Source: Pseudomonadota bacterium (GTDB taxonomy: Bacteria > Pseudomonadota > Alphaproteobacteria > UBA8366). From it: a stretch of DNA of 64,000 nt. Below the pieces are notes generated by a model. The model did not search any database, was not told the DNA's origin, and saw only the letters and a program-made list of their open reading frames with translations. The translations under genes and the position numbers were made by a program. The stretch is taken from positions 121,767 to 185,766 of the forward strand of contig JAYZAS010000004.1 of assembly GCA_036339585.1 (NCBI GenBank), given 5' to 3'. Positions 32,498-63,160 of the stretch are shown here, in pieces; within the stretch, counting starts at the first letter, position 1, and every line of letters starts with the position of its first letter.

Positions 32498-32631
32498 CTG
32501 GTTGCAGGGTAGCTGCGTGGGTATTCAGATTTACCGAGCGCCTTGGGGTCATTTTTAACCCCACAGGAAGCAATAACCACGGTCGTAGACAATAAGACAA
32601 AAGCCGCCAAGATGTTTTTTACTGACTTCAC
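32494..32631 (-). CDS. small lipoprotein, LptM/YifL-like
   Basis: Below the ORF-track cutoff. GTG start at 32631. Translation is (M)[44 protein letters not shown], with lipobox 'IASC' and the 'YPRxYP' tail. The start overlaps the argH stop (GTGA) and the stop overlaps the lysA start (ATGA). Confidence 0.72.
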
Positions 32632-47399: not shown

Positions 47400-47415
47400 C
47401 CCTAGTAGGGAGGTA

Positions 47416-47514
47416 ATGATGAAAACTTATTTTATCGTGAGCGTTGCGATCTTTGCGGTAATAACACTCTACGGAGTATACACTGGACAATTTGATGCTA
47501 TGCTTGCCAAATAG
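47416..47514 (+). CDS. candidate 32-aa single-TM peptide
   Basis: Below the track cutoff. The SD GGGAGG (47408-13) lies just upstream of the ATGATG. Translation is MMKTYFIVSVAIFAVITLYGVYTGQFDAMLAK. Sits between dioxygenase A2 and the FAH gene on the same strand. Confidence 0.35.
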   Translation: MMKTYFIVSVAIFAVITLYGVYTGQFDAMLAK

Positions 47515-47554
47515 TTGGCGGAATTCTAATCCAAATTAAGAGGGGACATATTCG

Positions 47555-48340
47555 ATGCGTATTGCGAGGTTTGATAAGGACGGTCGCCCATGCCACGGAA
47601 TTATTGAAGGTGAAACTATCTATGAAGTAGAGGGTGGCCTTTTTGATGGCCTCAATAAGACCGGAGAGACCCACGCGTTAAGTGCAACCAAGCTTTTAGT
47701 CCCGTTTAAACCTGAAGTGTTTTATGCAGCAGGCTTAAACTATGCTGAGCATGTGAAGGAGCAAGCAGAAATGCACGGGAGGGAACCGAATCTCCCGGAA
47801 AAGCCAGATATAGGATATCGGGCCAATAATGCGTTAATTGCTCATGATGAAGACGTAGTAATCCCGGCACACGCCCCTGACACTGTCCAATACGAAGGAG
47901 AAATCGTAGCGATTGTCGGCAAAAAAGCGAAAAATCTGACAAAAGAAAATGCCCTCTCGTGTATTATGGGATACACAATTGGAAACGACGTGAGTGAACG
48001 GACCTGGCAAACAGGTGACCGAACGATGTGGAGAGCGAAGAATACAGATACATTTAAGCCTATGGGTCCATGGATTGAGACTGATGTTGATCTGGAATCC
48101 CTAACCACAACAGTTCGTGTGAATGGCAAACAAACAATACAGTTTCCGACTAATAATTTCCATTTCGACATTCCAACTTTTATTGAAGCAATGACTAGCT
48201 GCCTTACGCTGCACCCGGGCGACATGATTTGGATGGGAACAGAAGGACGGGCACCGAACCTGCAACACGGCGATACTGTGGAAGTAGAAATCGACGGAAT
48301 AGGCCTTCTCAGAAACCGATTCGTACGAGAAGGTCAGTAA
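47555..48340 (+). CDS. fumarylacetoacetate hydrolase (FAH) family protein
   Basis: 261 aa with 'YEGEIVAIVGKKAKN' and 'GYTIGNDVSER...WRAKNTDTFKPMGP'. Confidence 0.88.
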   Translation: MRIARFDKDGRPCHGIIEGETIYEVEGGLFDGLNKTGETHALSATKLLVPFKPEVFYAAGLNYAEHVKEQAEMHGREPNLPEKPDIGYRANNALIAHDEDVVIPAHAPDTVQYEGEIVAIVGKKAKNLTKENALSCIMGYTIGNDVSERTWQTGDRTMWRAKNTDTFKPMGPWIETDVDLESLTTTVRVNGKQTIQFPTNNFHFDIPTFIEAMTSCLTLHPGDMIWMGTEGRAPNLQHGDTVEVEIDGIGLLRNRFVREGQ

Positions 48341-48424
48341 GGAAGCCCCTAAGAAAGAATAATTGTTTGCAGAAATTCGTTATTTTTCTGCGCCAGAGTC
48401 AGCTCATCTAGGTAGAGCTTCTAT

Positions 48425-49405
48425 TCACCCTGGAATGACTTTATCTCCTGCAAATTGGCACCTCCACATCACTCTTGGTTGTGTCGGGTTGACTACTTCG
48501 CGTCTGTGCATTGCAGACCTATTATCCCAGACCAGAAAGTCGCCAACCTGCCAACTGTGTGTCCAAGCATACTTGGGCTGCGTAGCGTGCGCCCAAATTC
48601 TGTCAAGTAGTTCCTCGCTGTCATTTGGAATCCCCTCTATATATTGAGATGGCCACGTACGCCGCCGCCCGAGATAAAGAGCTTTCTTTTTAGAGACAGG
48701 ATGGATGCGAACCATGGGATGCATAGGCCCGGGAACCTCCTCTGGACAAGTCGGTTCGGTAACACCGGGACGGAGAACATTGGCTGAGTTGCGCGTGGCA
48801 TCCTGCTTGGAACGTTTGCCCTCAATAGCTTTTTTTAGGTCATCAGGCATTTCTTCATACGCCAAATATTGATTATTAAAAGAGGTTTGCCCACTATTAT
48901 CGTCCGGAATTACTAGGGAATAGAGTGTGCTACCAGCAGGGGGCTCCTCGATATAAGAATTATCTGAGTGCCACACAACCTCCAAGCTCCCAAGGCCATC
49001 ATTTTTCTCCACCGGATTACCATCTTCGCCAAGATTGCATAAAATCGATATTTCGTTGTCCATTGCATGGTAAAGAGACTTTTTCTTCGCTCTTTCATAA
49101 AATTTTTTGTTCGCCCCCTCCTGGGGTTTACCGAATACTCTAGCTGCAGCCATATAATCATCAGGTTCCAGCTTCTGGTGGCGAAATAAAAGTACCAAAT
49201 GGTCTGCCCAAGCCTTTCTCAACGCTGCAGCTACATCTCTAGAAATGGGTTTAGACAGATTAACCCCTTGTATTTCGGCGCCCACCGCCTTGCCAGTAGG
49301 AATGACACTCAAGGTTTCTAATGTATTTTGCTCCAATTCTACAGGTGAAGGCACCTCTGGTGCATGCGTATACTTTGCAGCAAATTCATGAGTTTCCATT
49401 GCCAT
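48425..49405 (-). CDS. TauD/TfdA-family Fe(II)/2-oxoglutarate dioxygenase (type B, copy 1)
   Basis: 326 aa with 'VVWHSDNSY' (HxD), 'GQTSFNN' and 'WDNRSAMHRR'. AGGAGG SD. Confidence 0.85.
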   Translation of the reverse strand: MAMETHEFAAKYTHAPEVPSPVELEQNTLETLSVIPTGKAVGAEIQGVNLSKPISRDVAAALRKAWADHLVLLFRHQKLEPDDYMAAARVFGKPQEGANKKFYERAKKKSLYHAMDNEISILCNLGEDGNPVEKNDGLGSLEVVWHSDNSYIEEPPAGSTLYSLVIPDDNSGQTSFNNQYLAYEEMPDDLKKAIEGKRSKQDATRNSANVLRPGVTEPTCPEEVPGPMHPMVRIHPVSKKKALYLGRRRTWPSQYIEGIPNDSEELLDRIWAHATQPKYAWTHSWQVGDFLVWDNRSAMHRREVVNPTQPRVMWRCQFAGDKVIPG

Positions 49406-49495
49406 TTTTTATTCCTCCTGAGACCACAAACCTTATTTAAATAACACTTTCCCATAATGCTGAATATATTTCACACTTTCTCATTTTGAAACGGC

Positions 49496-50428
49496 TTAGT
49501 TTTTCCAAGCTGAAATAATCGGCTCACCTTTTATAAGTGCTCGGTGCATTACCCGAGCTTGGGTGTGGTCAATCGGATTACGCTGGTGCATCGTACATCT
49601 ATTATCCCAAAGAATAAGGTCGTGCACCCGCCAATGGTGGGTCCACTTAAGGTGGTCCTGCGTCGTGTGCGCCCATAATCGATCTAACAACCGATCACCC
49701 TCTTCGTTAGGCAACTCTTCAATGTAACTTGAATTACCTTCATACCTGCGACCGAGATATAGGCATTGTTTGCCCGTTTTTGGATGAATGCGAACGATCG
49801 GATGTGCCGGCCCAGTGATCTCTTCGCGAGTTTGCGGCTCTTTTACGGTCGGCCGGAGTTTCCCAGCGGTGTTCCGGAGATTGTCATGTCGAATATGCTT
49901 GCCTTGGATAGCCTTCTTGAGATCGCTCGGCAATTCCTCGTAAGCTTGATATTGATTGTTAAAAGAGGTTTCACCCCCCCCATTAGTTGGCACTATTTCT
50001 GACCACAACAGGGTACCTCCCGGAGGTACATCGACATAGGAGTTGTCGGTATGCCAGAGTGCCTCCAAGCTTCCAACACCCGCAGTTTCGCGTGCTGGCT
50101 TACCGTCCTCGCCAAGGTTCGAAACCAAACTAATGCCAGCGTGCTTCGCAACTCGATGTGTTGCACCCGCATGAAAACCTGCCTTCAGAAAAAATGCACG
50201 GCTACCCGCTACTTGCTGTCCACCAAACACGTCAGCGACTGATAGAATGTCTTCATCTGACAAATCTTGATTACGGAAAAGGAGAACCATATTTTGGAAC
50301 CAGCATTCAAGTAGAAGATCTCGAACCTCATCGGATACTGGTTGACGAAGATCTAAACCAAACACTTCAGCGCCTAGAGCTGCTTCAGTTTGTACAACTT
50401 CAAAGTGGCCGTTACCTACATTCTTCAC
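49496..50428 (-). CDS. TauD/TfdA-family Fe(II)/2-oxoglutarate dioxygenase (type B, copy 2)
   Basis: 310 aa with a GTG start behind GGAGGGG. Has 'ALWHTDNSY', 'GETSFNN' and 'WDNRCTMHQR'. Clear paralog of copy 1. Confidence 0.85.
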   Translation of the reverse strand: MKNVGNGHFEVVQTEAALGAEVFGLDLRQPVSDEVRDLLLECWFQNMVLLFRNQDLSDEDILSVADVFGGQQVAGSRAFFLKAGFHAGATHRVAKHAGISLVSNLGEDGKPARETAGVGSLEALWHTDNSYVDVPPGGTLLWSEIVPTNGGGETSFNNQYQAYEELPSDLKKAIQGKHIRHDNLRNTAGKLRPTVKEPQTREEITGPAHPIVRIHPKTGKQCLYLGRRYEGNSSYIEELPNEEGDRLLDRLWAHTTQDHLKWTHHWRVHDLILWDNRCTMHQRNPIDHTQARVMHRALIKGEPIISAWKN

Positions 50429-50520
50429 AATTCACCCCTCCAATAATAATCATGCGTCACACCACAATTATAGCAGATACCGCAATAAAATACTCTGGGC
50501 CAGGGTCCGTTCTATTTGTC

Positions 50521-52857
50521 TCAACCTTGGGCCCGCTTTGCTGATGTGATGGCTCGCCATATAACTTCCGATGTCATGGGCATATCAAGATGATTGACGC
50601 CTAGCGGTGCAAGAGCATTTATCACCGCATTCGCAACACATGGCAATGCACCTACCGTACCCGCCTCACCAGCCCCCTTAATGCCAGTTGGATTAGTCTT
50701 GCAAGGAACGGGATTGGATCCAACGGCAATTGAACTAATGTCATCCGCTCTAGGCATACAATAGTCCATAAAACTTCCGGAAATTAGCTGTCCTTCGTTA
50801 TCATAGAAAATATTTTCCATAAGCACCTGCCCAAGACCTTGTGCCACGCCACCATGTATTTGGCCCTTCAACAACAGAGGATTAACAACAACGCCAACAT
50901 CATCGACGACTGAATATCTCTGTATGTCAACACGCCCGGTATCCTGATCTATCTCTAATTCGCATACATGCGTACCATTTGGAAACGTCTCAGCCTCCGG
51001 GAGATGGGAGTACATTTCGTCTAGCCCGATTTCCACATCATGAGGAATTCGGTTTGGCGAAAAAGAGGCCCGTGCTACCTCCATTATATTCATCGCCTTA
51101 TCAGTCCCAGCAACCTTGAAGCTACCATCAGAGAATTCAATGTCGTCCTCAGCAGCCTCAAGATTATGGGCGGCAATTTTTTTGGCTTTTTCTATGATCT
51201 TACCGGATGCGCCAAAAATTGCTGCCCCGCCAAGTTCTGCTGACCGAGACCCTCCCGTTCCCTCACCCATGGAAACTTGGTCCGTATCGCCCTCTATCAT
51301 CCGAATCCTTTCAACGGGAATTCCCAACCTATCCGACAGTATCTGCTTAAAACACGTGTCGTGACCCTGACCATGACTGATGGTTCCCATAAGAAGCAGC
51401 ACCGAACCTGCTTTAGTAAAGCGAATCTCGGCGTGTTCAAAGCGCCGCCTTCCTCCAGCTTGTTCTATTGTATTTGAAATCCCGATACCACGCAGCATGC
51501 CTACTTTTGCCGCCTCCTCGCGACGAGCTTCAAATCCCTCGTAATCTGCAAGTTTGAGAGCCATATCAAGACTCTTCTCAAAGTCACCCGAATCATATTT
51601 GAAGGTGAGCGCAGTCTGAAACGGGAGTGCATCCTTAGGTATGAGATTAAGCCGGCGCAGCTCGGCTGGATCAATCTCCATTTTATGTGCTGCAATATCA
51701 ATAAGTCTTTCCATTATATATGCCGCTTCGGGTCGACCCGCCCCACGGTAAGGGGCAGTGCTGCTTGTATTTGTGAGAACCGCATCAACGTGCACATACA
51801 TTGCCTCCGTGGTGTACGTTCCAGCCATCGTGCCGATATTTCCAAGCGGAGGGTTAGGCCCCCGTGAGGCGACGTAGGCGCCAAGATTAGCAATAGTTTT
51901 ACATTTCACCCCAAGAAATTTACCATCTTTAGTCAATGCCAGGGCTGCATCACTTACGTTGTCACGAGCATGCGTATCGCTGATAAATGACTCTGAACGT
52001 GGTGCGTACCATTTTACAGGCCTATCCAATAGTTTTGCGGCCCAAAGCACCAATACATATTCTGGATATGTGCCGCCTTTCATACCAAAGCTTCCACCTA
52101 TATCATCGGAAATAATACGAAAGTTATATTCCGGCTCACAGAATACATTTTCGGCCAAATCAGCACGAATATTATGTGGCTGCTGCAGACCAGTATGGAG
52201 AATATAACGGCTTCCATGCCTATCAAATTCACCAATACAACCGCGATTTTCCATAGAGTTGGTTGATACCCTATTTATCACAAATTTCTGTTGGACAATA
52301 ACATCCGCTCTATTAAATGCAGTTAATGTTGCATCTTCATCACCTACATCGTGACAAAAGGCTATATTGTCAGGACATTCTTCCCAAACTGGAATTGAAT
52401 TTGGACCAACCGCAGCCGATGTTCCAACCATAGCCGGCAGTACCTCATACTCAATCTCTATTAATTCAGCCGCATCCTTTGCTTGATCCAAGGTCTCTGC
52501 GACAATGAAAGCAATTTGGTCACCCACACATCGAATTCTATCGGTTACCAGCGCTGGACGCGGTGGACGAAATATTGGCTTACCATCAGGGCGTCTTGGT
52601 GTGCCTACATCAGTAACAACACCGTTTAATCCCGATTTGACAAAATCTTCACCAGTAAGAATTAACAACACACCCGGCGCGGCAGCAGCGTGTTCTGTTT
52701 TGATGTTTCTAATGCGTGCATGCGCCACCGTGGCACGCAAGATATATCCATGTACCATACGGTTAATGCGAATATCGTCCAAATAACGGCCAACGCCTTT
52801 CAAAAGCCGCGGATCCTCAGTCCGCGGAACAGATTGCCCTATGGCGTATCGAACCAT
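50521..52857 (-). CDS. xanthine dehydrogenase/aldehyde oxidase/CoxL-family molybdopterin-binding large subunit
   Basis: 778 aa with the N-terminal 'GQSVPRTEDPRLLKGVGRYLDD', then 'APYRGAGRPEAAYIMERLID' and 'GGSFG'. Confidence 0.9.
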   Translation of the reverse strand: MVRYAIGQSVPRTEDPRLLKGVGRYLDDIRINRMVHGYILRATVAHARIRNIKTEHAAAAPGVLLILTGEDFVKSGLNGVVTDVGTPRRPDGKPIFRPPRPALVTDRIRCVGDQIAFIVAETLDQAKDAAELIEIEYEVLPAMVGTSAAVGPNSIPVWEECPDNIAFCHDVGDEDATLTAFNRADVIVQQKFVINRVSTNSMENRGCIGEFDRHGSRYILHTGLQQPHNIRADLAENVFCEPEYNFRIISDDIGGSFGMKGGTYPEYVLVLWAAKLLDRPVKWYAPRSESFISDTHARDNVSDAALALTKDGKFLGVKCKTIANLGAYVASRGPNPPLGNIGTMAGTYTTEAMYVHVDAVLTNTSSTAPYRGAGRPEAAYIMERLIDIAAHKMEIDPAELRRLNLIPKDALPFQTALTFKYDSGDFEKSLDMALKLADYEGFEARREEAAKVGMLRGIGISNTIEQAGGRRRFEHAEIRFTKAGSVLLLMGTISHGQGHDTCFKQILSDRLGIPVERIRMIEGDTDQVSMGEGTGGSRSAELGGAAIFGASGKIIEKAKKIAAHNLEAAEDDIEFSDGSFKVAGTDKAMNIMEVARASFSPNRIPHDVEIGLDEMYSHLPEAETFPNGTHVCELEIDQDTGRVDIQRYSVVDDVGVVVNPLLLKGQIHGGVAQGLGQVLMENIFYDNEGQLISGSFMDYCMPRADDISSIAVGSNPVPCKTNPTGIKGAGEAGTVGALPCVANAVINALAPLGVNHLDMPMTSEVIWRAITSAKRAQG

Positions 52858-52970
52858 ATACCCTCCAAACTAGTGCAACACCTTTAATATTAAGCGGCAA
52901 TAAAGGGATACGCACCTCTTAGTCCCTTGCCATTCCAAAAGAATCACAGAACACTAACAATGGGTAGTTT

Positions 52971-53867
52971 TTAAAAGTCATACAACTTAGCAGGGTTATC
53001 TACGAAAATCATTTTTCTAATCGCTTCGTCTGGAACCCAGTCCACCATTGCATCCAAACAGGATGCCTCGTCTGGCTTATCATTTATGGGAAATTGTGGA
53101 TGGGGCCAGTTCGCGGCCCACACTAGCCGATCGGGCCGCACCTCCAAAAGTGCCCTAACATAAACGGCAACTTGCTCATAATCAGGGAAATCCCCGTTTT
53201 TGCCGTGGTGACCATCGGTGCACATGTAATAAGGTGCCGATATCTTAATCCAGCAGCGGCCAGTTTCGAAAAATTTGAGTAAGGCATTAAAACCATTAGT
53301 GTCTGCCGATTGGCCTGCACCTATCCGCCCGATGTGATCTATTACACAATCTACCGGTAATTTTTGAAATATACTGACCGCTTCTTCTAACCATACCCCG
53401 TCGTCTTGGAACTGTATATGCCAGCCCAACGGAGCAACCTTTTCAGCCATTGGAATAGCATCTTCAAGCGCGAAATCATCCGCCATCAAAAAAAACCGCA
53501 AACCACGAATTCCTTGTGTGTGGAGTTTCCATAGTTCTTTCTCTGATATGTCTTTCCTGGTAACACAAACGCCACGAGTTGTTTCCAGGCCCCGCGCGGC
53601 TATCGATTTCAGTGTACATCGATTGTCCGATCCATACGCTGATGGCTGAACGATTACGGCGCGATCGAAACCAAGCCTATCTAACATCTCGTTATAAGCA
53701 TTTAGTGAACATATAGGCTCGCCTAAACGCCCCGGCCAAAGAGGATATTTTTCTAGCGGCCCATAAATGTGTGAGTGAGTTTCACATGAGTTTGGAGGGA
53801 GTTTTAATTGGGGTTTCCTGCCAGAATCTGTGAGAGTAAGCTGATGCTTGTCATTCAATGTATTCAT
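52971..53867 (-). CDS. amidohydrolase_2-family metal-dependent hydrolase (LigI/ACMSD-like)
   Basis: Start at MNTLNDKH. Metal motif 'CETHSHIYGP' and a later 'VIDHIG' and 'WPHP'. About 298 aa. Confidence 0.78.
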   Translation of the reverse strand: MNTLNDKHQLTLTDSGRKPQLKLPPNSCETHSHIYGPLEKYPLWPGRLGEPICSLNAYNEMLDRLGFDRAVIVQPSAYGSDNRCTLKSIAARGLETTRGVCVTRKDISEKELWKLHTQGIRGLRFFLMADDFALEDAIPMAEKVAPLGWHIQFQDDGVWLEEAVSIFQKLPVDCVIDHIGRIGAGQSADTNGFNALLKFFETGRCWIKISAPYYMCTDGHHGKNGDFPDYEQVAVYVRALLEVRPDRLVWAANWPHPQFPINDKPDEASCLDAMVDWVPDEAIRKMIFVDNPAKLYDF

Positions 53868-54153
53868 GCTTTTATAGCCTTGCGACAATAATATTAACAA
53901 AGGCATAACATGTATTGGCTTACAGAGTCAGCGACTCGGGGTGTTTTTACATCAATTTATTGCCTAATCTACATTCTCAATAACGTGCCCAAGACCCTAA
54001 AAAACTTATTCGCAATCCTAAAATATCATTTCAAAAAAATGGGTTATAACAAGTTTCTTCGGTATTGACTGTTGCTCCAAATAATCTCTGCTTGAAATTT
54101 TTTGAGAAAAAAACTACCACAAGTAGTGTAAAGGACGTGTTTGGTGACAATAT

Positions 54154-54831: not shown

Positions 54832-56148
54832 ATGCCGCATAAGCCAAGTGAATTAGCCTCTATGAGGACACGTGATTTTAACAGAGTCACGCCTAACATG
54901 TTATTTGCTAACAGAAATTACCTAAAGCTGTGGTTTAACGGCGGCACGGCAACAACCATGCGCTGGCTTGAATTGCTTGCAATAGGTTTTTTTACTCAGA
55001 AAGCCACTGAATCTGAATTTCTCGTAGCGATGATGTTTTTTCTTCGTTGGATACCAATGGTCCTTCTAGGAAGCTTCGTTGGAGTACTTGCCGAGAGATT
55101 TGACCGCCGCAAGCTATTCCTCTACGGCATTTTTATGCTTTGGATGGTGTCAGCTACACTTTTTGTTTTAACCTGGTTTGATGCGCTAGAGATCTGGCAC
55201 GTAGCTCTTGGGACAACCATTAATGGCTGTCTAAACGTTATCGAATTTCCAATTCGCCGAACTCTTATCGGAGATGTTGTAAAATCTAAAGAACTTGTAC
55301 CTGCCATGGCGCTTGATTCTGTTACTAACCAGTGTACGCGAATGGCCGGACCATTTCTTGGAGTGATTATCGAAGGATATCTCGGGATAATTGGGGTTTA
55401 TTTCTTAGGTTTGATTTTGCATGCCATCGGTTTTGTACTATCGTACTCTCTTAAACCCCCTGTGCAGAAACCAAGAATAGAGAAAAAACGGGTGCTAACT
55501 GAGATAAGCGATGGGTTCAAACATATCAAAACACGTGACATGCTTACTGCGACATTAGTGGTCACGGCGATAATGAACGCTTTTGCCATGTCATTTTCAT
55601 CACAGATACCAGCAATAGCAGTTGAAGAACTAAATTTAGATACAAACCAATCCAGCTTTCTTGCAGGAGCCGAAGGTTTGGGTGCATTTATTGGTGCTTT
55701 AATAATAGCAACACGCCAGTTTACAACTCCCGGTCGTCTTCTTCTCTTTGGCTCAATCATATTCGAGATTTTCCTTATCGCATTTTCCCATGCACCCGAA
55801 CTAATTTTTGCAATACCCCTATTGGTGTTGAGCGGGATTGGCCATTCCGGTTTCTCCGCCAGCCAATCCGCCCTAATGATTGCATATTCTGATCCGACCA
55901 TGCGATCCCGTACAATGGGGGTACTTGCTGTATGTATCGGCACCCAGCCATTCGGCATTCTTCTCCTGGGAGTTATTGCAGAATTTTATGGGGCCCCTGT
56001 TGCAATTGCGATCTCGGCAAGTTTGGGAACAACGTTACTCATTTGGGCAGGCTATAAATGGCCTGCAATCTGGAGTGGTAGTTTTTACGAACCACCAAAT
56101 GATCTAAGCCATCAGAAGCAAGACAATGATCGCAGTAACAACAAGTGA
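54832..56148 (+). CDS. MFS transporter
   Basis: 438 aa with about 12 hydrophobic segments and an MFS_3-like N-terminus ('FRNRNY'-type 'FANRNYLKLW'). Confidence 0.85.
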   Translation: MPHKPSELASMRTRDFNRVTPNMLFANRNYLKLWFNGGTATTMRWLELLAIGFFTQKATESEFLVAMMFFLRWIPMVLLGSFVGVLAERFDRRKLFLYGIFMLWMVSATLFVLTWFDALEIWHVALGTTINGCLNVIEFPIRRTLIGDVVKSKELVPAMALDSVTNQCTRMAGPFLGVIIEGYLGIIGVYFLGLILHAIGFVLSYSLKPPVQKPRIEKKRVLTEISDGFKHIKTRDMLTATLVVTAIMNAFAMSFSSQIPAIAVEELNLDTNQSSFLAGAEGLGAFIGALIIATRQFTTPGRLLLFGSIIFEIFLIAFSHAPELIFAIPLLVLSGIGHSGFSASQSALMIAYSDPTMRSRTMGVLAVCIGTQPFGILLLGVIAEFYGAPVAIAISASLGTTLLIWAGYKWPAIWSGSFYEPPNDLSHQKQDNDRSNNK

Positions 56149-57015
56149 CATGCCTATAAATTCATGGACCCGTGCCCGTTCTTTAAATACCAAGTAAGAA
56201 ACCAATATTGAGAGAATTACTTCAAGCTGACTGACCGTTTTAACGTATGCCACACGCTCAAGTGTCATAGCACTAAACCAGCCAACAGAGCCGAGGGCAC
56301 TGAAAATACCTACCATCAAACTAGGTTTCCATAGCCTAATAATATTTTGAATCTCAGACTTATCCTGGAGGATAAGATAAAACACGATGAGAAACACCTC
56401 AATCGACAGCACTATCACGAGCACAAAACCTGCTTTCAACAAGAAACCACCCTCTGTTAACTCAAGTGCAGCTGCACGAATAAACACGGAAGCCGCCGCG
56501 ATCCCAAAGCCGCTGAGAACCCCGTAAACTGCAGCTCTAGTAAAGAGACCTGTTAAAATGCTATTGAGATCGAATTTCCCACCAACGGCCGATAACATCA
56601 CGACACCTGTCATGCTAATGACTATCGCACTATACCCGGCAAGGGATATTTGATCACCAACCAACAATAATCCCAACAGCGCTGACTGGATAATTTCAGT
56701 TTTTGTGTAAGTGATGCCGACGGCAAAATTACGCTGCCTTAACAAAAGAATGAGAAAAAGTGTACCCAAAATTTGGGTTACTGCAGCACAAAAACAATAG
56801 CCCCAAAAAACTAATGTGGTGGAGGGAATGAGAGTCCCACCGGCAAAATATTTTAAGATACCATAATATAAAAACCCAAATGGTAAGCCGAACACAAATC
56901 GAACGCAGACCACGCCGATCGAGCTCATGCTGGTAGTAAGATGCTTCTGCAGACTATGCCGGACGACCTGCATGACCACAGCAAAAAGGGTGATCCAGAC
57001 CCAGAGCTCCAACAT
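56104..57015 (-). CDS. EamA/DMT-family transporter
   Basis: 303 aa with about 10 TM segments in a two-repeat architecture. Last gene of the Rieske/NHase string. Confidence 0.82.
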   Translation of the reverse strand: MLELWVWITLFAVVMQVVRHSLQKHLTTSMSSIGVVCVRFVFGLPFGFLYYGILKYFAGGTLIPSTTLVFWGYCFCAAVTQILGTLFLILLLRQRNFAVGITYTKTEIIQSALLGLLLVGDQISLAGYSAIVISMTGVVMLSAVGGKFDLNSILTGLFTRAAVYGVLSGFGIAAASVFIRAAALELTEGGFLLKAGFVLVIVLSIEVFLIVFYLILQDKSEIQNIIRLWKPSLMVGIFSALGSVGWFSAMTLERVAYVKTVSQLEVILSILVSYLVFKERARVHEFIGMSLVVTAIIVLLLMA

Positions 57016-57057: not shown

Positions 57058-57375
57058 TTACACCTTACGTTGACGAGCGCGCACATCTTCAAGCTTTGTC
57101 GTAAGTTCTTCGTCAGAAAATATCCCTTTCTCAATCAGTAACGCCTGCAAACTCCAGAGCTTACGTTCATAATAGTTAAGCTTTTTATAATCTTCACCGA
57201 GAGCCTCAATAGCGCGTCTACCCTCGTGCGTGTTAGTTAAATTCGCCCCGAGTGGACGCAGCAATTGGCCCATCGCATCGACGCGCCACTCCCAAAAAGC
57301 CAATTCGTGGTCGGCTGTATCAATGGGGCCACCGGCCTCACCTCCCATATCGGCTGGATTTTTCTTCTTTCTCAT
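57058..57375 (-). CDS. nitrile hydratase beta-subunit N-terminal-half-like protein (or beta-like accessory/chaperone)
   Basis: 105 aa. 'ADMGGEAGGPID...LAFWEWRVDAM...RRAIEALGEDYKKLNYYERKLWSLQALLIEKGIFSDEEL' aligns by eye to residues ~1-100 of NHase beta. Its start overlaps the alpha stop (TAATG). Confidence 0.68.
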   Translation of the reverse strand: MRKKKNPADMGGEAGGPIDTADHELAFWEWRVDAMGQLLRPLGANLTNTHEGRRAIEALGEDYKKLNYYERKLWSLQALLIEKGIFSDEELTTKLEDVRARQRKV

Positions 57376-57995
57376 TACGCCACTCTCACAGTAGTAACAC
57401 CAATCATCGAGTCTCGAGTAACAAGCTTCGAAAGCTGTTTTTCAGTCATGTTTTTGGTCTGATCGGGGCGCATGGGTAACACTAAATAACGGAGATCTGC
57501 TGTACTATCATGTACTCTCAACTCAATTTCTTCTGGTATATCAGTTCCAAATTCCTTCAGAACAGTCCTCGGCTCGCGAATTAACCTACGTCGGTAATTA
57601 GAGCTTTTATACCATGCAGGTGGTAAACCAAGGACTGGTCTTGGGTAACAAGAGCAGAGTGTACAGACTACAACATTATGAACCTCAGGTGTATTCTCAA
57701 TGACCTTCAGTTCTAAATCGCCCATCCCAACGTCATATTGAGCGACCGCTTTAGTGCCGTCTTCCAAAAGTAGCTTCTTGAAATCATTATCGCACCAGGC
57801 ACGTGCAATGATTTTACTACCTAAAGCGGGCGTCTTCTGCTCCCAATCCTCAACTTGTTTTCGAATTTGGTCTGCGGTCAAAATGCCCTTTTCAATTAAA
57901 AGTTCACGGACTGCTATTTCACGAACTTGCGTTTCTGTTATATCTGGCCCTTCAGTATCTTTCTGAAATTCGGACTGATCGTGTTCATGAGGCAT
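57375..57995 (-). CDS. nitrile hydratase alpha subunit, Co-type metal centre
   Basis: 206 aa with 'VVVCTLCSCYPRPVLGLPPAWYKSSNYRRRLIREPRTVLKEFG' and 'LVTRDSMIGV'. The CTLCSC claw-setting motif is intact. Confidence 0.9.
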   Translation of the reverse strand: MPHEHDQSEFQKDTEGPDITETQVREIAVRELLIEKGILTADQIRKQVEDWEQKTPALGSKIIARAWCDNDFKKLLLEDGTKAVAQYDVGMGDLELKVIENTPEVHNVVVCTLCSCYPRPVLGLPPAWYKSSNYRRRLIREPRTVLKEFGTDIPEEIELRVHDSTADLRYLVLPMRPDQTKNMTEKQLSKLVTRDSMIGVTTVRVA

Positions 57996-58053: not shown

Positions 58054-58437
58054 TTAATCGATCGTCGACACTACTCTTGAGATTTCGTCCACTACTTTTA
58101 CTCCGGATCGAGTGTACACTATTTTGTCCCCGTCTAAAATGACCCCGGCGGGATAAAGTTTCTGGCCCTCACATGGGCCGTCAATACACATCCCGTCTTC
58201 AATCCGAAAATATGCGGCATGTGAATTGCAAAATAAAAGCCCTGGCTTACCCCTCGTCATAAAGTTCCCAACTTCCCCATCTAATCGAGAACCTATGTGC
58301 GGGCAAAGGTTAATGTAAGCCCTTATATCGCTACCAATACGGATTATTATCAACCGCTGAGCTACAGTCCCACCCTCAACGCTAAATCCTTTTGCTTCGC
58401 CATCACAAAGATCAGTAAGTCGGCACAGCTCAATCAT
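58054..58437 (-). CDS. Rieske [2Fe-2S] domain protein
   Basis: 127 aa with 'CPHIG' and 'CNSHAAYF', i.e. CxH...CxxH, plus 'GPC'. Confidence 0.85.
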   Translation of the reverse strand: MIELCRLTDLCDGEAKGFSVEGGTVAQRLIIIRIGSDIRAYINLCPHIGSRLDGEVGNFMTRGKPGLLFCNSHAAYFRIEDGMCIDGPCEGQKLYPAGVILDGDKIVYTRSGVKVVDEISRVVSTID

Positions 58438-58612: not shown

Positions 58613-59605
58613 TCAATATTCAGCAAACATTCGTCGCAATTCTGATGTTTCTTTTGATACAGTAAGTGCCATCATAGTCAGTATCCGCGCCTTCTGCGGA
58701 TTGAGATTGTCTGCACTTATCCAACCCTGATTGAAATATTCGGAACGGTCCAATACACGACCGGAACCGGCTCGAGAAGAGAATATAACGGGTATGCCTT
58801 TGGCATTAGCTTCTTGCAGTGCCCGCTTTTGGTCAGGGGCCGGAGTCCCAGGAGGCATGGTTGCCATCACAATTGCTTCTGCACCCCCTGCAATTACCGC
58901 CGCAACTTGATCGCCTGATGCACCAGCATACGAATAAATTATGTCGACACGCGGCAGGCTATCTCGCCCAGCCACGTTGAATTCTGTGTCTGGCGCATGT
59001 CTTCGAGTGGGTTTTCGGTAAACAGAAATACGGTCATCTGGGTCCGCATGGCCGAGCATTCCCATGTCCGGAGTGCGAAAGGTCTGAAGCCTGTAGGTCG
59101 AAGTCTTGGTAACTTCACGTGCGCACTGGATCTCATTATTAAGAATAGTCAGTACTCCCATGCCCTTACATTCGGGCGCGCTAGCGACTTGAAGGCCATT
59201 CCTAAGATTGGCACCTCCATCAGTGGCAAACCCCGACGAGGGCCTCTGAGCTCCTATAACCACAATCGTGTTCTGAGATTTGTGAGCCAAGTGGAGAAAA
59301 TAAGCGGTTTCTTCTAAACTGGCTGTGCCATGAGTTATTACAATACCATCGTGGACCTTTGCGACATCTTCAACCTTAGCCAATAACTCAAGCCATGTCT
59401 CAGGCCCAATGGCAGAACTGGAGATCCGACCAAAGTCGACAGGTGTTACGTCGGCTACTGAAGCGGCCTCCGGAAATAAATCTAATAATTCCCTTGGCCC
59501 ATATCTCTCTCCGTGGGCCACGTAGTCAAAGGTGTCAAGGCTGTTTTTACCCTTTGATCCTATCGTGCCCCCGGTAGTTACAAGAGCAATTTTTGGCTTA
59601 GTCAT
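58613..59605 (-). CDS. L-asparaginase/glutaminase type II family protein (variant active-site motif)
   Basis: Start at MTKPKIALV behind GGAGG. Has 'LVTTGGTIGS', 'ITHGTASLEETAYFL' (canonical HGTDT) and 'REVTKTST'. Confidence 0.82.
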   Translation of the reverse strand: MTKPKIALVTTGGTIGSKGKNSLDTFDYVAHGERYGPRELLDLFPEAASVADVTPVDFGRISSSAIGPETWLELLAKVEDVAKVHDGIVITHGTASLEETAYFLHLAHKSQNTIVVIGAQRPSSGFATDGGANLRNGLQVASAPECKGMGVLTILNNEIQCAREVTKTSTYRLQTFRTPDMGMLGHADPDDRISVYRKPTRRHAPDTEFNVAGRDSLPRVDIIYSYAGASGDQVAAVIAGGAEAIVMATMPPGTPAPDQKRALQEANAKGIPVIFSSRAGSGRVLDRSEYFNQGWISADNLNPQKARILTMMALTVSKETSELRRMFAEY

Positions 59606-61130
59606 TTCGGGCACCTCCAATCTTGCAGAATGTTTTTGTTTCATTAATCAGTCTTTCTCGCGCCCTCGCTACACGACGAGAAATAGCGCCAACTTTCTTT
59701 TTATCCTCGAGCAATTCGCGATTCCTGATTGTTATCATATCACGCATCCTTTTAGAACTTGGGCCGCCCATAAGTCCACGCTGTTCAATGTTTCTCTCAG
59801 GATTGAGCGCCTCGCTAACCAGTTTCTGAGACAAGTTGAGCCTCTTACCAAAAAGCTCCAGCGCTGCGCTGTCAAGGTCAGAGGATTTGATGTCAGTAGC
59901 AATTCCACCTTTGCCCACAGTATTACGTACAACGGTACCAACTACATTGTGCGCCATGCGGAATGAAAAACCAGTCTCACGAACTATCACATCCGATAAC
60001 TCCGTTGCAGTGCCGAAGCCAATTTCCGCCTGTTTTTTCATAACGTCTTTATTAACGACAATAGCAGAAAGTACTTCATTTATTAGCAACAATACACTAC
60101 CTGCATGTTTGCACGCATCAAGTGCCGGCTCATTGAGAGCAGTTACGCCGTCAGCCACGTCACTAAGCGAGGTGTTCTTGACACAGGCCGAGGCTGAGGT
60201 GAATGCGCCGTTCACAATCCCAGCCACTGCTTTTATGTGTTCAAGGGCAGCCGGATTTTTCTTCTGCGGCATAATAGATGAAACCGCAGAGTGTTCATCG
60301 CCAGTCTCTATAAAACCGTATTCAAAGGTGTTCCATGCCTGCAAATCAAAAGCGAGACGGGAAATGTTTGTCATAAAAATTGCCAACGCTGCCGTCGACT
60401 CCATCGCATCATCACGATTTGAAACTGCATCATAAGCGATTTCCATCGGCTGAGGAAAACCAAGCGCTTTAGCCACAAGCTTACGGTTTAGCGGAAACGC
60501 TGTCGTAGTCAAAGCACCAGCACCCAGTGGGCATTGATCAGTATTTTGAAGAGAGGCGAAAATACGGGCAAAATCACGTTGCAACAGATCCGCCAAGGTC
60601 AACAGGTAATAACCCAGCGTAATTGGCTGGGCGTGTTGGGAATGCGTATAACCTGGCATCACGGTTGCGATATGTCGTTGTGAAAGCCTCAAAACTGTTT
60701 TTCGCAGTTCAGCTAATCGAGAGAGAATCTCAAGCAATTCAGTCCGCAGTGCCATGCGCCAGGCTGTGGTGTGCATATCGTTGCGGCTGCGCCCGGTATG
60801 CAATTTTCCTCCCACCTCTGGACCCAACCTCGACACTATGTAGCGCTCGGTGTAGGAGTATAGGCCCTCCAATTTATAATCAATGCTAAGTACTCTGTGG
60901 CCCTCAGTTTGTATCTTCAGTATTAATTTTAAAATTTTTTTTATGTCTCGGCTTGGAACAATTCCCTGTTTTACCAACATTAACCCGTGGGCCATATGTA
61001 TCTGCATTTCTGCATCAAAATTATATTCAAGGTCTTTTGCTAATTTTTTGCTGAAATAAGTCTCAACAAAAATTTCGGATGGCGCACTTTTTAGACGCTC
61101 TCGCAGATTAACTTTTGATTTTCGAACCAT
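59598..61130 (-). CDS. argininosuccinate-lyase-like fumarate-lyase superfamily protein (second ArgH paralog)
   Basis: 510 aa with 'TGRSRNDM', 'PGYTHSQHAQP' and 'VSSIMPQKKNPAALEH'. Overlaps the asparaginase-like start by 8 nt. Confidence 0.85.
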   Translation of the reverse strand: MVRKSKVNLRERLKSAPSEIFVETYFSKKLAKDLEYNFDAEMQIHMAHGLMLVKQGIVPSRDIKKILKLILKIQTEGHRVLSIDYKLEGLYSYTERYIVSRLGPEVGGKLHTGRSRNDMHTTAWRMALRTELLEILSRLAELRKTVLRLSQRHIATVMPGYTHSQHAQPITLGYYLLTLADLLQRDFARIFASLQNTDQCPLGAGALTTTAFPLNRKLVAKALGFPQPMEIAYDAVSNRDDAMESTAALAIFMTNISRLAFDLQAWNTFEYGFIETGDEHSAVSSIMPQKKNPAALEHIKAVAGIVNGAFTSASACVKNTSLSDVADGVTALNEPALDACKHAGSVLLLINEVLSAIVVNKDVMKKQAEIGFGTATELSDVIVRETGFSFRMAHNVVGTVVRNTVGKGGIATDIKSSDLDSAALELFGKRLNLSQKLVSEALNPERNIEQRGLMGGPSSKRMRDMITIRNRELLEDKKKVGAISRRVARARERLINETKTFCKIGGARND

Positions 61131-61239: not shown

Positions 61240-62349
61240 ATGAAGATTGATAAAGTTGAAGCTATAGCCATAGAAGTGCCATTACCCAAACCTTTTGCTG
61301 GAGCCACCTATACCGTACCAACCCGTAATACCATCGTAACTCGCATTTATACTGATGATGGTTTAGTGAGTGAGGTGTACAATGGTGATAATCGGAAGTG
61401 TGGTCCAGAAGTGGCAAGAATAGTCATGGAGGATATAGCTCCCTTAATTCTCGGCCTTAACCCCATCTGTCATGAAAAGGTCTGGGAACATGCCTTTAAG
61501 ATTACTACTCCCCAAGGTGACCGAAAATATTTGATGGAGGCAATTGCTTGCGTGGATACCGCAGTTTGGGATTTGAAAGGCAAAGCACTTGGCTGCAGCG
61601 TCAACAAGTTGATGGGAGGATACCGCCAACGGATACCCATCACCGCAACCGGGGGCTACTACCAAGAAGGACGGACGGTTGAAAGTTTCGGGGAGGAGAT
61701 GCAATGGCTCATAAGTGTGGGAATGGGTGGATGTAAGTTTAAAGTTGGGGGCTTAAGCCCGGAAGAAGATTTTGAACGCGTCGCCTCAGCTCGCGAAGGA
61801 GCCGGGCCAAATTTTATTCTCGGCTGTGACGCCAACCAAGGCTGGACTATAGATGAAGCAACCCGTTTTGCCGAACTAGTAGAGCCTTTAGATATTACGT
61901 GGTTTGAAGAACCTGTACGATGGCAGGATGATGTTCGTTCTATGGCAGAACTTCGAAAGCGTATCTCCATTCCGATCAATGCCGGCCAAAGTGAAATGAC
62001 AAGTTGGGGTGTGCGGCGTTTGCTTGATGCGGGTGCCGTAGATATTGTCAACTTTGATATGTCGCATGGCGGAGGACCTACAGAATGGCTTCGCGCAGCA
62101 ACTATGTGCGGATCAGTTGGAGTAAAGCTTTTGCATCATGAGGAAACCCACCTAGCAGTTCATGCGTTAGCGGCAGTCCCGCATGGTCTATACACAGATT
62201 GTTTTCCAGACCCTGAACGCGATCCAATTTGGGATAAAATGATCGTGAACCGGCCTAATATTTGTGATGGCTGGATAGATGTGCCTCAAGGGCCGGGTTT
62301 TAACATTGAACTTGATTGGGAAGCCGTGAAAAAATATCGCACCAATTAA
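61240..62349 (+). CDS. enolase-superfamily enzyme (mandelate racemase/muconate lactonizing family)
   Basis: 369 aa with 'CKFKVGG' (KxK), 'GCDANQGW', 'WFEEPV' and 'NFDMSHGGG'. Confidence 0.88.
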   Translation: MKIDKVEAIAIEVPLPKPFAGATYTVPTRNTIVTRIYTDDGLVSEVYNGDNRKCGPEVARIVMEDIAPLILGLNPICHEKVWEHAFKITTPQGDRKYLMEAIACVDTAVWDLKGKALGCSVNKLMGGYRQRIPITATGGYYQEGRTVESFGEEMQWLISVGMGGCKFKVGGLSPEEDFERVASAREGAGPNFILGCDANQGWTIDEATRFAELVEPLDITWFEEPVRWQDDVRSMAELRKRISIPINAGQSEMTSWGVRRLLDAGAVDIVNFDMSHGGGPTEWLRAATMCGSVGVKLLHHEETHLAVHALAAVPHGLYTDCFPDPERDPIWDKMIVNRPNICDGWIDVPQGPGFNIELDWEAVKKYRTN

Positions 62350-62381: not shown

Positions 62382-63160
62382 ATGGTTTTACCCCATTCGC
62401 CAACTTAAACACAGTAGATATATCCCTGCTAATCGGCATAAATCTATTTGGCTTCACGGTTCGTGGCGCTTTCGGGTTTGGCGCAGGGCTTCCCAATGTT
62501 TTACTAATGAGTTTGATAGTTCCACCCCACCAGGCGGTAGTCTTACACAGCACGGCAACGTTATTCTCACACCTCCAACTTTTTCCACAGGGAGTGCGAG
62601 TTGGTGACTGGCAAATCTCTAAGCACCTTATTTTTGGGTTCTTCTTTGCTACTATCGCAGGTGTTTTGCTATTTTCCTCTTTAAATGAGAACCAACTAAA
62701 AGTTTCTATAGGCCTACTCTTATTAATTATAATGCTTGCTAATTTGCAAAACCCTTGATCGACAAAGCGTCCATATTAATCTCAAGAGACTAAGCGTGCT
62801 AATTTTCTACGGTGCATTTTCTGGGTTTAGTGGAGCAATCGCAGGCGGTGGAACGGGTTATTTTCTCGCTGCATATCTCAAATGGGCGACTGAAAGCTCA
62901 ATAAGTTTTCGCGGAACAAACCTTCTAATGGAAATTTTTTACGGCTTATGGAGATTTTTTCTATTAGTGATCGCCGGTTGGGTTGGATGGCATACCTTGC
63001 TCAATGCGTTGATATTGGTGCCGCGGTCCTACTAGGCGGCATGCTCGGGCGTTTGTTGTCTCAACGACTTAAAACCGCTACCTTCTACCGTGGCGTTCAA
63101 TTAATATTGATATTTGCTACAATCTTATTGATGACCAAAAGATTAAAGTTGTTCGAGTAG
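62382..63160 (+). pseudogene. TauE/SafE (DUF81) family anion/sulfite exporter, disrupted by frameshifts
   Basis: Consecutive TauE-like segments sit in alternating frames. ATG 62382 gives MVLPHSPT*. Then FTPFANLNTVDISLLIGINLFGFTVRGAFGFGAGLPNVLLM...LANLQNP* runs to stop 62756-58. Then ...LSVLIFYGAFSGFSGAIAGGGTGYFLAAYL...GWVGWHTLLNAL... runs to 63035. Finally ...VDIGAAVLLGGMLGRLLSQRL... runs to 63160. The total span of about 780 nt fits a roughly 250-aa TauE. Confidence 0.65.

Follow-up and report, generated by a model that had tools for sequence, protein, structure and literature searches.

A possible minimal cobalt nitrile hydratase composed of an α subunit and half of a β subunit in marine Rhodospirillaceae

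Main finding

The window, which is the whole stretch of 64,000 nucleotides that was analysed, contains a two-gene locus encoding a Co-type nitrile hydratase (NHase) α subunit and a 105-aa protein that corresponds to the N-terminal half of an NHase β subunit (βN). NHases are treated as obligate α/β enzymes. The canonical β subunit of approximately 220 aa consists of an N-terminal helical domain and a C-terminal β-barrel domain (βC). The two genes seem to encode a working cobalt NHase of minimal composition, made of α and βN only, and this reading is given a probability of about 0.5; in other words, the enzyme may be able to do without a domain that is regarded as necessary. The original prediction had left three readings side by side: a minimal two-subunit enzyme, an α subunit with a chaperone, and a three-subunit enzyme with its third subunit encoded elsewhere. 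The first is now best supported, on account of the conserved architecture, the purifying selection, the kept catalytic and second-sphere residues, and the remodelled pocket, and an α subunit accompanied by a pure chaperone is disfavoured. The features of the locus are as follows.

54832..56148, plus strand: MFS transporter, 438 aa (MFS_3 118.5 bits, MFS_1 86.7 bits)
56104..57015, minus strand: EamA-family (DMT) transporter, 303 aa (Pfam EamA 46.5 bits), last gene of the putative operon
57058..57375, minus strand: βN, the N-terminal arm and helical domain of NHase β, 105 aa (PF21006)
57375..57995, minus strand: Co-type NHase α subunit, 206 aa (matches to Pfam NHase_alpha, TIGR01323, and PDB entries)
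58054..58437, minus strand: small Rieske-type [2Fe-2S] ferredoxin, 127 aa (Pfam Rieske 34.4 bits)
58613..59644, minus strand: asparaginase/glutaminase-family amidohydrolase, 343 aa (Asparaginase 158 bits, Asparaginase_C 99 bits)
59598..61130, minus strand: argininosuccinate-lyase (ASL)-like paralogue, 510 aa (Lyase_1 168.8 bits plus ASL_C2; TIGR00838 365 bits)
61240..62349, plus strand: enolase-superfamily (MR/MLE) enzyme, 369 aa (MR_MLE_C 176.8 bits, MR_MLE_N 57.8 bits)

Conserved gene cluster

The order ASL-like lyase, asparaginase-like gene, Rieske gene, α, βN, and EamA is conserved. The cluster was found on approximately two dozen contigs from five GTDB species, all of them MAGs of uncultured marine Rhodospirillaceae. 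The 90%-identity cluster containing the window protein has 45 members, and individual members occur on up to 55 contigs, Tara Oceans included. The α gene precedes βN in every clade member examined, and EamA directly follows βN in all clade loci. The ASL and Rieske genes seemed to be absent at one locus (L021), but both were found there by tblastn. The MR/MLE enzyme is divergently transcribed and is also a conserved cluster member; its best NCBIfam matches are acid-sugar dehydratases, all below the cut-off. The MFS transporter, convergent with EamA, is a conserved neighbour.

In trees built by a distance method with 40 bootstraps, the two-gene clade is monophyletic (40/40 for α, 39/40 for βN). 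Split-β three-gene NHases with the order βN-βC-α are common in Alphaproteobacteria, and all 73 informative loci of the sister family have this order, with βC less than 3 kb from βN and α and the genes mostly overlapping. The sampled three-gene family and the two-gene clade are sister groups, the latter not being nested within the former, and a secondary loss of βC is inferred only by parsimony. Deeper members of the clade share 70-76% amino-acid identity, and their synonymous sites are saturated. The α-βN arrangement is a conserved architecture and not a truncation.

The locus might also be regarded as what is left of a decaying three-gene NHase operon that has no function, given that it lacks a domain usually considered necessary. 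However, the reading frames are intact, dN/dS is about 0.06-0.11, and both the length and the translational coupling are kept among members with saturated synonymous sites, so that decay is very improbable.

The GC content was 0.435-0.475 throughout and gave no compositional trace of recent transfer. Promoter and terminator scans gave results at or below the shuffled expectation. The Rfam scan of the window gave one tRNA and no other family; that is, no riboswitch was found in it.

Catalytic α subunit

The α subunit matches Pfam NHase_alpha (PF02979) with 267 bits (cut-off 27.2), and its match to TIGR01323 is marginally above the cut-off (252.2 against 249.85 bits). A PDB search gave Co-type α chains at E values of 1e-55 to 1e-61, and the identity to two solved Co-type α chains is approximately 51-53% in aligned columns. 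The metal site is V110-C-T-L-C-S-C116, in which C111-T-L-C114-S115-C116 forms the ligand stretch; the Thr in this motif indicates the Co-type. CTLCSC is invariant across the aligned α subunits (8 from the clade and 75 from the sister family), and C[TS]LCSC is present in 120 of the 120 α homologues collected. Arg136 is specific to the clade, occurring in 28/28 members and in 1/92 sequences outside it. The dN/dS of 0.055-0.069 indicates strong purifying selection. A Shine-Dalgarno-like GGAGAA is located 8-13 nt 5' of the ATG.

It should be mentioned that α cross-matches the leader model of NHLP-type RiPPs (TIGR03793; 79.5 bits, cut-off 50.9). A RiPP precursor was ruled out by the full length of 206 aa and the intact metal site. 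Identity as thiocyanate hydrolase (SCNase) was also rejected: the score against the SCNase γ model TIGR03887 is 219.6 bits, below the cut-off of 291.45, and the C-half subunit is absent. The substitution D127A in α (PPAWYK) was considered as a marker of βC loss and discarded. It is also found in βN-α fusions, but the fusion P0226 is followed by a βC gene.

Half-length β subunit

Base 57375 belongs both to the stop codon of α (TAA, 57377-57375) and to the start codon of βN (ATG, 57375-57373), and the two genes are translationally coupled via this TAATG. βN matches PF21006 (NHase_beta_N) with 47 bits (cut-off 21.5) over profile positions 3-101 of 115. Its match to the full-length β model TIGR03888 covers only positions 5-98 of 226 with 36.8 bits (cut-off 152.2), and no full-length β was recognised at the window locus. 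In the PDB, βN aligns to residues 6-95 of Co-type β chains (3QXE_B and 4FM4_B). In the AF2 model of βN, arm residues 1-28 are disordered and are followed by five helices. The top 23 Foldseek matches of this model are SCNase β or NHase β chains, the best being SCNase β (probability 0.99, TM 0.57). The original prediction had described a 206-aa α with an intact VCTLCSC centre, a TAATG overlap with the next ORF, and similarity of that ORF to the N-terminal half of β only. These points were all borne out.

βN retains D9-M-G-G12, G16-P17, R53 (equivalent to βArg52), Y68/Y69, and E70. R53 is invariant in the clade. The arm reads ADMGG...GP, the His of HDxGG being replaced by Ala in the two-gene clade. 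Residues A8, W30, H50, G52, and K72 are clade-specific. In the numbering of Co-type β, taken from the alignment with 3QXE_B, the pocket changes are L48T, F51G, and W72K. The dN/dS of βN is 0.077-0.11. Its length is 105-110 aa in every close homologue, which means that βN is not a product of truncation or of assembly error.

A small β-like ORF after α recalls the operons in which α is followed by an activator gene. This order counts for a reading in which βN is only a maturation factor of the P14K/NhlE/AnhD kind, and α acts alone like ToyJ or joins a β from another locus. Self-subunit-swapping chaperones are small and β-related, and AnhD2A acts as one (PMC7329996). ToyJ alone is catalytically active, according to Nelp et al. 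(2014) as cited in PMC7329996. However, βN gave no match to the accessory model TIGR03889 at E ≤ 10. A placement of the 105-aa ORF squarely in the accessory-protein family with an ordinary α/β pair nearby, which the original prediction had named as a point that would speak against it, was thus not obtained. With the same model, a 95-aa activator-like paralogue (L019) gave 24 bits and structural βN proteins 17-19 bits. Furthermore, the DxGG...GP arm is retained in βN together with R53 and Y68/Y69, and it is absent from activator-like copies, namely the 95-aa ORF of L019 and the first halves of P0166, P0175, and P0242. Invariant pocket positions specific to the clade make little sense for a pure chaperone, and no further NHase is encoded nearby. 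βN therefore looks like a structural subunit rather than an accessory protein, and a role in maturation only is unlikely.

Search for the C-terminal half of β

No βC was found in the 64-kb window, either by tblastn with three βC proteins (best E 0.75) or by a 76-sequence βC HMM at maximum sensitivity in six frames (best E 2.6). The positive controls of this HMM gave 126-129 bits. The HMM also found none in 12 related loci, the longest of which span 20 kb. EamA starts 42 nt after βN, which leaves no space for a hidden C-terminal half. Among the window ORFs of at least 150 aa, there is no CobW, amidase-signature, or further NHase gene. CobW-like activators accompany Fe-type enzymes, so that the absence of CobW is of little weight. 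The original prediction had listed a missing β C-half, EamA as the next gene downstream, and no CobW-type activator in the window. All three statements hold, the second with EamA at 56104-57015 and the third among the ORFs of this size. The second-sphere arginine pair is incomplete: R53 is present, and βArg157 belongs to the absent C-domain.

The DNA inspected for βC comprised 64 kb of a 516-kb contig and ±10 kb on the related contigs. This confined range leaves room for a conventional three-subunit split-β NHase with a dispersed locus, in which βC is encoded elsewhere in the genome. Such an enzyme would agree with the need of Streptomyces canus AnhDEA for both halves (PMC7329996) and with βArg157, which is regarded as conserved and important (PMC7193024). 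The βN-α fusion lineage P0226 keeps a separate downstream βC gene, which means that gene order in the family is plastic, and a few three-gene loci have 0.6-2.4 kb inserted between βN and βC (L044, L046, and L075). On the other hand, βC stays within 3 kb of its partner genes in every one of the 73 informative sister loci and is absent in the window and the 12 related loci. In the five GTDB genomes that carry the two-gene cluster, no second βN-type locus was seen among the best 80 of 104 hits, although this point is weak. The clade-invariant changes near the active-site Arg and in α fit a re-adapted interface. A dispersed βC is a possibility of some weight, but it is clearly less probable than the minimal enzyme.

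Proposed α/βN enzyme

The CTLCSC motif of α is intact, as are R53, Tyr68/Tyr69, and the N-terminal arm of βN. In the proposed minimal enzyme, α would hold Co(III) via C111, C114, S115, and C116, with the cysteines oxidised. The arm of βN would wrap around α, and βN would line the substrate channel on one side and contribute R53 and Y68. What β R52, R157, Y68, and W72 do has been reviewed (PMC7193024); βArg52 and βArg157 are two highly conserved arginines that form salt bridges with the oxidised cysteines (PMC7193024). The contact of βArg157 might be dispensable here, or it might be replaced by a clade-specific basic residue, K72 or H50 of βN or R136 of α.

The stoichiometry is possibly α(βN)2, by analogy with S. 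canus AnhD2A, which is an α(βN)2 complex in vitro and holds cobalt (PMC7329996). βN possibly also acts as a chaperone for itself, in self-subunit swapping and in cobalt delivery. The precedent of AnhD from S. canus, for which both a structural and a chaperone role were shown (PMC7329996), makes such a dual role plausible.

The activity of the S. canus complex of α and βN (AnhDA) is 0.2-2% of that of the holoenzyme, which needs both β halves (PMC7329996). This near-inactivity, in the only three-subunit enzyme so tested, counts against the minimal enzyme. The absence of βArg157 and an amidohydrolase lacking the canonical Asp of HGTDT also count against it.

Rieske protein upstream of α

The Rieske protein contains C45-P-H47...C70-N-S-H73 and C84/C89, and its ligands are invariant in 10 homologues. 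The PDB matches are weak and include the ferredoxins T4moC and NDO-Fd, and also NirD. The gene lies 58 nt upstream of α in the window and immediately 5' of α in every clade locus, with gaps of 58-98 nt and no translational coupling.

This constant position, together with the purifying selection on the protein (dN/dS 0.10-0.13), might be explained if the Rieske protein were a functional partner of α/βN, either as a stand-in for βC or in redox chemistry for cobalt insertion or cysteine oxidation. An unrelated βN-α fusion (P0183, at L119), with no βC within ±8 kb, is also positioned next to a Rieske protein, between it and a VOC/glyoxalase protein. In addition, cobalt insertion into AnhA in vitro requires a reductant (PMC7329996). 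However, the Rieske protein at L119 is of the oxygenase type, with 447 aa, and is not a ferredoxin. Homologues with 45-50% identity to the window protein adjoin EamA, or stand elsewhere, without NHase. These homologues weaken the case for an obligate partnership and suggest that the α-βN pair was inserted into a Rieske-EamA unit that was already there. The lack of coupling to α is a further point against a partner. The idea that the Rieske protein is a diverged βC was rejected, the hhalign probability against βC being 0.07%. A functional partnership is thus quite unlikely. Just as unlikely is a true loss of βC with the Rieske protein recruited as a third component, structural or redox, which would give an iron-sulfur-coupled member of the NHase family.

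Amidohydrolase, lyase, and candidate pathway

The amidohydrolase gene is conserved in the cluster. The protein scores 275 bits against TIGR00520, below the cut-off of 314, and has no obvious signal peptide. The motif HGTAS takes the place of the canonical HGTDT. In comparison with an E. coli reference sequence, the equivalents of T12, Y25, T89, K162, and E283 are retained, and that of D90 is Ala in 8/8 clade amidohydrolases. This enzyme is a candidate for acting on the amide product.

The ASL-like paralogue belongs to the aspartase/fumarase superfamily. Its gene, with which the putative operon begins, is conserved in the cluster. A second, more canonical ASL-family gene is found at 32628-34019. 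It adjoins a gene of the PLP-dependent Orn/DAP/Arg-decarboxylase family, which is probably lysA.

With L48T, F51G, and W72K, a hydrophobic pocket would have become small and polar, with a cationic character. This change suggests that the substrate is a small nitrile, either polar or anionic. The asparaginase-family enzyme of the same putative operon would hydrolyse the resulting amide, and the ASL-like lyase would act downstream of this hydrolysis. The simplest candidate route is from β-cyanoalanine via asparagine to aspartate. A small polar nitrile such as β-cyanoalanine is a candidate substrate on the basis of the gene neighbourhood. The literature searched held nothing relevant on an NHase without βC, on an NHase with a Rieske protein or an asparaginase, or on the kinetics of βR157 mutants.

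If the proposal is true, a natural enzyme without βC would define the smallest catalytic unit in a family of industrial importance. It would also show which residues are able to replace βArg157, and it would offer a small engineering scaffold (206 plus 105 aa). The conserved association with genes for an asparaginase-type amidohydrolase and an ASL-like lyase points to an undescribed marine route for the use of a small polar nitrile. The host bacteria are found in Tara Oceans samples, and the obvious candidate nitrile in sea water is β-cyanoalanine. Should a βC gene exist at another place in the genome, the finding would shrink to an unusual dispersed operon.

Comparison with known systems

The α subunit is of full length and approximately 52% identical to that of canonical α2β2 Co-type NHases, a group that includes the enzymes of Pseudomonas putida (3QXE), Pseudonocardia thermophila (1IRE), and Bacillus (2DPP). 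βN aligns to residues 6-95 of their β subunits, with R52, Y68, and Y69 conserved. In contrast, residues of approximately 100-220, which form the C-terminal domain with βArg157, have no counterpart in the window. The window locus also differs in having no P14K-type accessory gene and in being paired with an asparaginase-family hydrolase instead of an amidase-signature enzyme.

A resemblance in subunit design is seen to the split-β Co-type NHases, S. canus AnhD-AnhE-AnhA and Streptomyces rimosus ToyJKL. These systems and the window locus share a CTLCSC α subunit, a separate βN-type polypeptide of approximately 105 aa in place of a single 220-aa β, and the absence of a dedicated activator gene. 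The alphaproteobacterial three-gene family is 33-49% identical in βN and 48-61% identical in α. However, the in-operon βC (PF02211) is missing at the window locus, and the order is α-βN, whereas it is βN-βC-α in AnhDEA and ToyJKL. Compared with the three-subunit NHases, the window βN carries W72K, D50H, and L52G (which aligns to the canonical Phe51), and α carries S136R. In S. canus, the complex of α and βN alone is almost inactive (PMC7329996).

In SCNase (αβγ; 2DD4), the β subunit is likewise split into two polypeptides, but the C-half subunit is present. The γ subunit of SCNase matches the window α at an E value of 2.6e-52, and SCNase β keeps Trp at the position of K72 in the window. NhlE, NhhG, and P14K (TIGR03889) are small β-related proteins that are often encoded right after α. 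Unlike these, βN of the window possesses the N-terminal arm together with the catalytic-site Arg and Tyr residues that mark a structural β, and it has no match to TIGR03889. The two roles might be compatible: βN of the three-subunit enzymes is able to act as a swapping chaperone (PMC7329996).

Nitrile hydratase genes in the window

The nitrile hydratase (NHase) pair consists of two genes.

57375-57995, minus strand: Co-type NHase α subunit, 206 aa, with V110-CTLCSC-116
57058-57375, minus strand: βN, the N-terminal half of NHase β, 105 aa; PF21006 (NHase_beta_N), 47 bits

The α subunit scored 267 bits with Pfam NHase_alpha and 252.2 bits with TIGR01323, barely over the cut-off of 249.85, and solved Co-type α chains in the PDB matched it along the whole length (E values of 1e-55 to 1e-61). 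Its stop codon and the ATG of the 105-aa ORF overlap by a single base (TAATG). NHase_beta_N was the sole family matched by this ORF: it covered only positions 5-98 of the 226 positions of the full β model TIGR03888, and was aligned with residues 6-95 of Co-type β chains in the PDB. The EamA gene follows 42 nt downstream of βN, and therefore the C-terminal half of β (βC) can not be hidden there. The original prediction, namely an α subunit with the VCTLCSC center, an overlapping ORF corresponding only to the N-terminal half of β, and EamA as the next gene, was thus borne out.

A search of the 64-kb window with three βC proteins (tblastn) and with a 76-sequence βC HMM at maximum sensitivity in six frames gave noise only; true βC genes, used as positive controls, scored 126-129 bits with this HMM. 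Among the window ORFs of at least 150 aa, Pfam identified neither a CobW or amidase-signature gene nor another NHase gene. The predicted absence of a β C-half and of a CobW-type activator from the window therefore held as well.

Conservation of the α-βN architecture

The window βN is identical to NCBI MEE2932522.1, which comes from a 516-kb contig of a MAG with the label Pseudomonadota bacterium. Its 90%-identity cluster has 45 member sequences, some of which occur on up to 55 contigs, Tara Oceans data included; for some, the annotation reads Rhodospirillaceae bacterium. All close homologues, with 70-94% identity to the 105-aa protein, have a length of 105-110 aa. One gene cluster is common to the metagenome contexts and five GTDB species, all of which are marine Rhodospirillaceae MAGs: the main strand carries genes for an ASL-like lyase, an asparaginase-like enzyme, a glyoxalase (in some), a Rieske protein, α, βN, and EamA, in this order, flanked by a divergent MR/MLE enzyme gene and, after EamA, a convergent MFS transporter gene. 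The dN/dS values were 0.055-0.069 for α, 0.077-0.11 for βN, and 0.10-0.13 for the Rieske gene. In deeper members of the clade, synonymous sites are saturated, but the proteins are still 70-76% identical. These values rule out decay of the locus, and the common architecture and length among homologues exclude an assembly artefact. The α-βN pair is a real, conserved architecture under selection.

No βC was found by HMM search in the clade loci from the metagenomes and the five GTDB species, in contexts of at most ±10 kb. Since the contexts have this extent, and since α and the N-half alone reached 0.2-2% of the holoenzyme activity in the one experimental precedent, from Streptomyces canus (PMC7329996), a substantial share of the probability stays with a βC encoded elsewhere in the genome. 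The most fitting description of the α-βN operon is that of a new architectural variant among the split-β Co-type NHases, one without βC, and its setting is a conserved marine catabolic cluster. A description of a βC-less α-βN NHase was not found in the literature searched.

Relation to the three-gene NHases

The nearest relatives outside the clade (33-49% identity for βN, 48-61% for α) belong to a large alphaproteobacterial split-β family, which includes lineages such as Stellaceae, Kiloniellaceae, Aliidongia, Paracoccaceae, and Pelagibius. In a census of 75 GTDB loci, all 73 in which the contig extends past βN have the order βN-βC-α, in most cases with the stop codon of one gene overlapping the start codon of the next, whereas the window clade has α-βN, with no βC at the locus. 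With canonical Co-type sequences as the root, neighbor-joining trees recovered the two-gene clade as monophyletic in 40 of 40 bootstraps for α and 39 of 40 for βN. It was sister to the sampled three-gene family, not nested inside; hence it is by parsimony that we infer the loss of βC.

The α subunits of the three-gene family (loci L011, L017, and L019) start with His/Asp-rich tails, MAPHDHDDEDHDHEHDHD in L019, whereas that of the window has only MPHEHD. In enzymes having no activator gene, such tails could serve as an inbuilt means of cobalt binding.

Gene cluster and putative pathway

The Rieske gene is directly upstream of α in every clade locus. The protein retains all four ligands of the iron-sulfur cluster as well as the disulfide cysteines, and resembles Rieske ferredoxins. 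Profile-profile comparison gave no sign of a relation to βC (probability of 0.07%). Homologues with 45-50% identity adjoin EamA, or are found elsewhere, without any NHase gene. For this reason, the α-βN pair seems to have been inserted into a Rieske-EamA unit that already existed, and the Rieske protein is not favored as a partner of α/βN. In two relatives of the cluster (L101 1891-3662 and L111 503-1867), Rieske is directly followed by EamA, without α and βN. In L101, glyoxalase and TauE genes precede this pair, and there is no MR/MLE, ASL-like, or asparaginase-like gene upstream either. The joint absence of all five hints that α, βN, and these three genes form one functional module.

Other features of the window are as follows.

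58613-59644, minus strand: asparaginase-family gene, HGTAS versus the family signature HGTDT (Asp90 to Ala)
32628-34019, minus strand: second ASL-family gene, 463 aa, Lyase_1 242 bits, more canonical
31229-32497: PLP-dependent Orn/DAP/Arg-decarboxylase-family gene, probably lysA, adjoining the preceding gene
45430-53906: catabolic island with four TauD/TfdA-family dioxygenase paralogues, an FAA-hydrolase-family gene, and an Amidohydro_2 gene
45430-46413, 46410-47399, 48425-49405, 49496-50428: the TauD/TfdA paralogues
50521-52857: molybdopterin hydroxylase large subunit, 778 aa
62368-63160, plus strand: split TauE/SafE sulfite-exporter gene in three overlapping frames (62507-62758, 62736-63035, 62948-63160)

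The asparaginase/glutaminase-family enzyme is the sole amidohydrolase in the operon. HGTAS replaces HGTDT in all eight clade members checked. The equivalents of T12, Y25, T89, K162, and E283 seem to be retained, as judged against the E. coli reference sequence, and there is no obvious signal peptide. This enzyme may be a specialized amidohydrolase, not a plain asparaginase. The ASL-family gene at 32628-34019 is probably the housekeeping argH, so that the 510-aa ASL-like gene of the NHase cluster is regarded as a paralogue.

The gene neighborhood suggests, as the simplest chemical reading, a three-step route: NHase would convert a nitrile to the amide, the asparaginase-like enzyme would convert the amide to acid and ammonia, and the ASL-like lyase would act on the acid. 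On the same basis, the obvious candidate would be β-cyanoalanine, converted via asparagine to aspartate, since NIT4-type systems are known to perform these two steps (PMC8567248).

The window up to ~45 kb contains housekeeping genes (Pfam, ORFs of at least 150 aa), followed by the catabolic island rich in TauD paralogues. Among ORFs of this size, no FAD or [2Fe-2S] subunit gene adjoins the molybdopterin hydroxylase. The TauE/SafE pieces match successive parts of PF01925, which is explained either by a pseudogene or by frameshift errors; in relatives, this position is occupied by three or four intact TauE genes or by a rhodanese gene.

Clade-specific residues and the pocket

Positions 81-100% conserved in the three-gene family and occupied by another, invariant residue in the two-gene clade were regarded as shifted. 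These were H8A, Y25L, K30W, D50H, L52G, P61E, W72K, and I73L in βN, and D127A and S136R in α. R136 occurs in 28 of 28 clade α subunits and in one of 92 other α homologues. In the alignment with the Co-type β chain of Pseudomonas putida (3QXE_B), T49, G52, R53, Y68, and K72 of βN correspond to L48, F51, R52, Y68, and W72. Of these, L48 and F51 presumably line the pocket. Thiocyanate hydrolase (SCNase) β has Trp at the position of K72. Y68 and W72 of Co-type β have been described as pocket residues, and R52 and R157 of β as conserved arginines paired with the oxidized cysteines (PMC7193024). From these shifts, we infer that the pocket of the clade would be smaller-walled, polar, and cationic, and could thus accommodate a small nitrile of polar or anionic character. 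One of K72, H50, or R136 of α may likewise make the contact for which βArg157 is missing.

Other βN architectures

When 1.84 billion representative proteins were searched with a profile, 1889 βN relatives were obtained at E≤1e-3, with βN-α fusions and βN-βN tandem proteins among the top matches.

P0226, L120 8001-9304: βN-α fusion, 334 aa, with a His/Asp-rich linker and PPAWYK
P0183, L119 8001-8993: βN fused directly to α in a single polypeptide

P0226 is followed by an overlapping, separate βC gene (100 aa). This [βN-α]-βC arrangement is a third gene order among split-β NHases, and it means that fusion alone does not imply loss of βC. P0183 has no βC within ±8 kb, and is a possible second, independent βC-less NHase; its neighbors encode a 447-aa Rieske oxygenase-type protein and a 208-aa VOC/glyoxalase protein, with IS elements nearby. 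P0232, P0248, and P0224 are further single-chain fusions, and some members of the set, which includes P0183, have a His-rich linker. P0284 (394 aa) is a βN-βC-α triple fusion with the degenerate metal motif VVGTLDSSGYP versus VCTLCSC, and is possibly a non-catalytic NHase-like protein. Tandem βN-βN proteins (P0164, P0166, P0175, P0242, and P0169) are 185-250 aa long. P0164 has the HHDxGG arm in both halves; the arm is missing from the first half of P0166, P0175, and P0242, and this half therefore looks activator-like.

Role of βN

βN keeps the N-terminal arm (D9-M-G-G12, G16-P17), together with W28, R31, D33, E57, Y68/Y69/E70, and R53, which is aligned with βArg52. The AF2 model consists of a disordered arm and five helices, and the best 23 Foldseek matches were all SCNase β or NHase β chains. 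Membership in the accessory-protein family had been considered in the original prediction, but no match to the model TIGR03889 was obtained even at E≤10. The retained arm, R53, and tyrosines, the β-like fold, and the lack of this match favor a structural and catalytic role. It should be mentioned that L019 (3752-4039), one of the 75 three-gene loci, is the only one with an extra 95-aa βN-like ORF, which has no N-terminal arm and lies upstream of a βN-βC-amidase-α operon. Its TIGR03889 score of 24 bits, under the 46-bit cut-off, was the best among all proteins tested, and it is a candidate dedicated activator.

A dual role of βN, as subunit and chaperone, is plausible by analogy. In the three-subunit enzyme of S. 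canus, the N-half homologue AnhD doubles as a self-subunit-swapping chaperone, forming the cobalt-containing complex AnhD2A with the α subunit AnhA (PMC7329996). The tandem βN-βN proteins recall this 2:1 stoichiometry.
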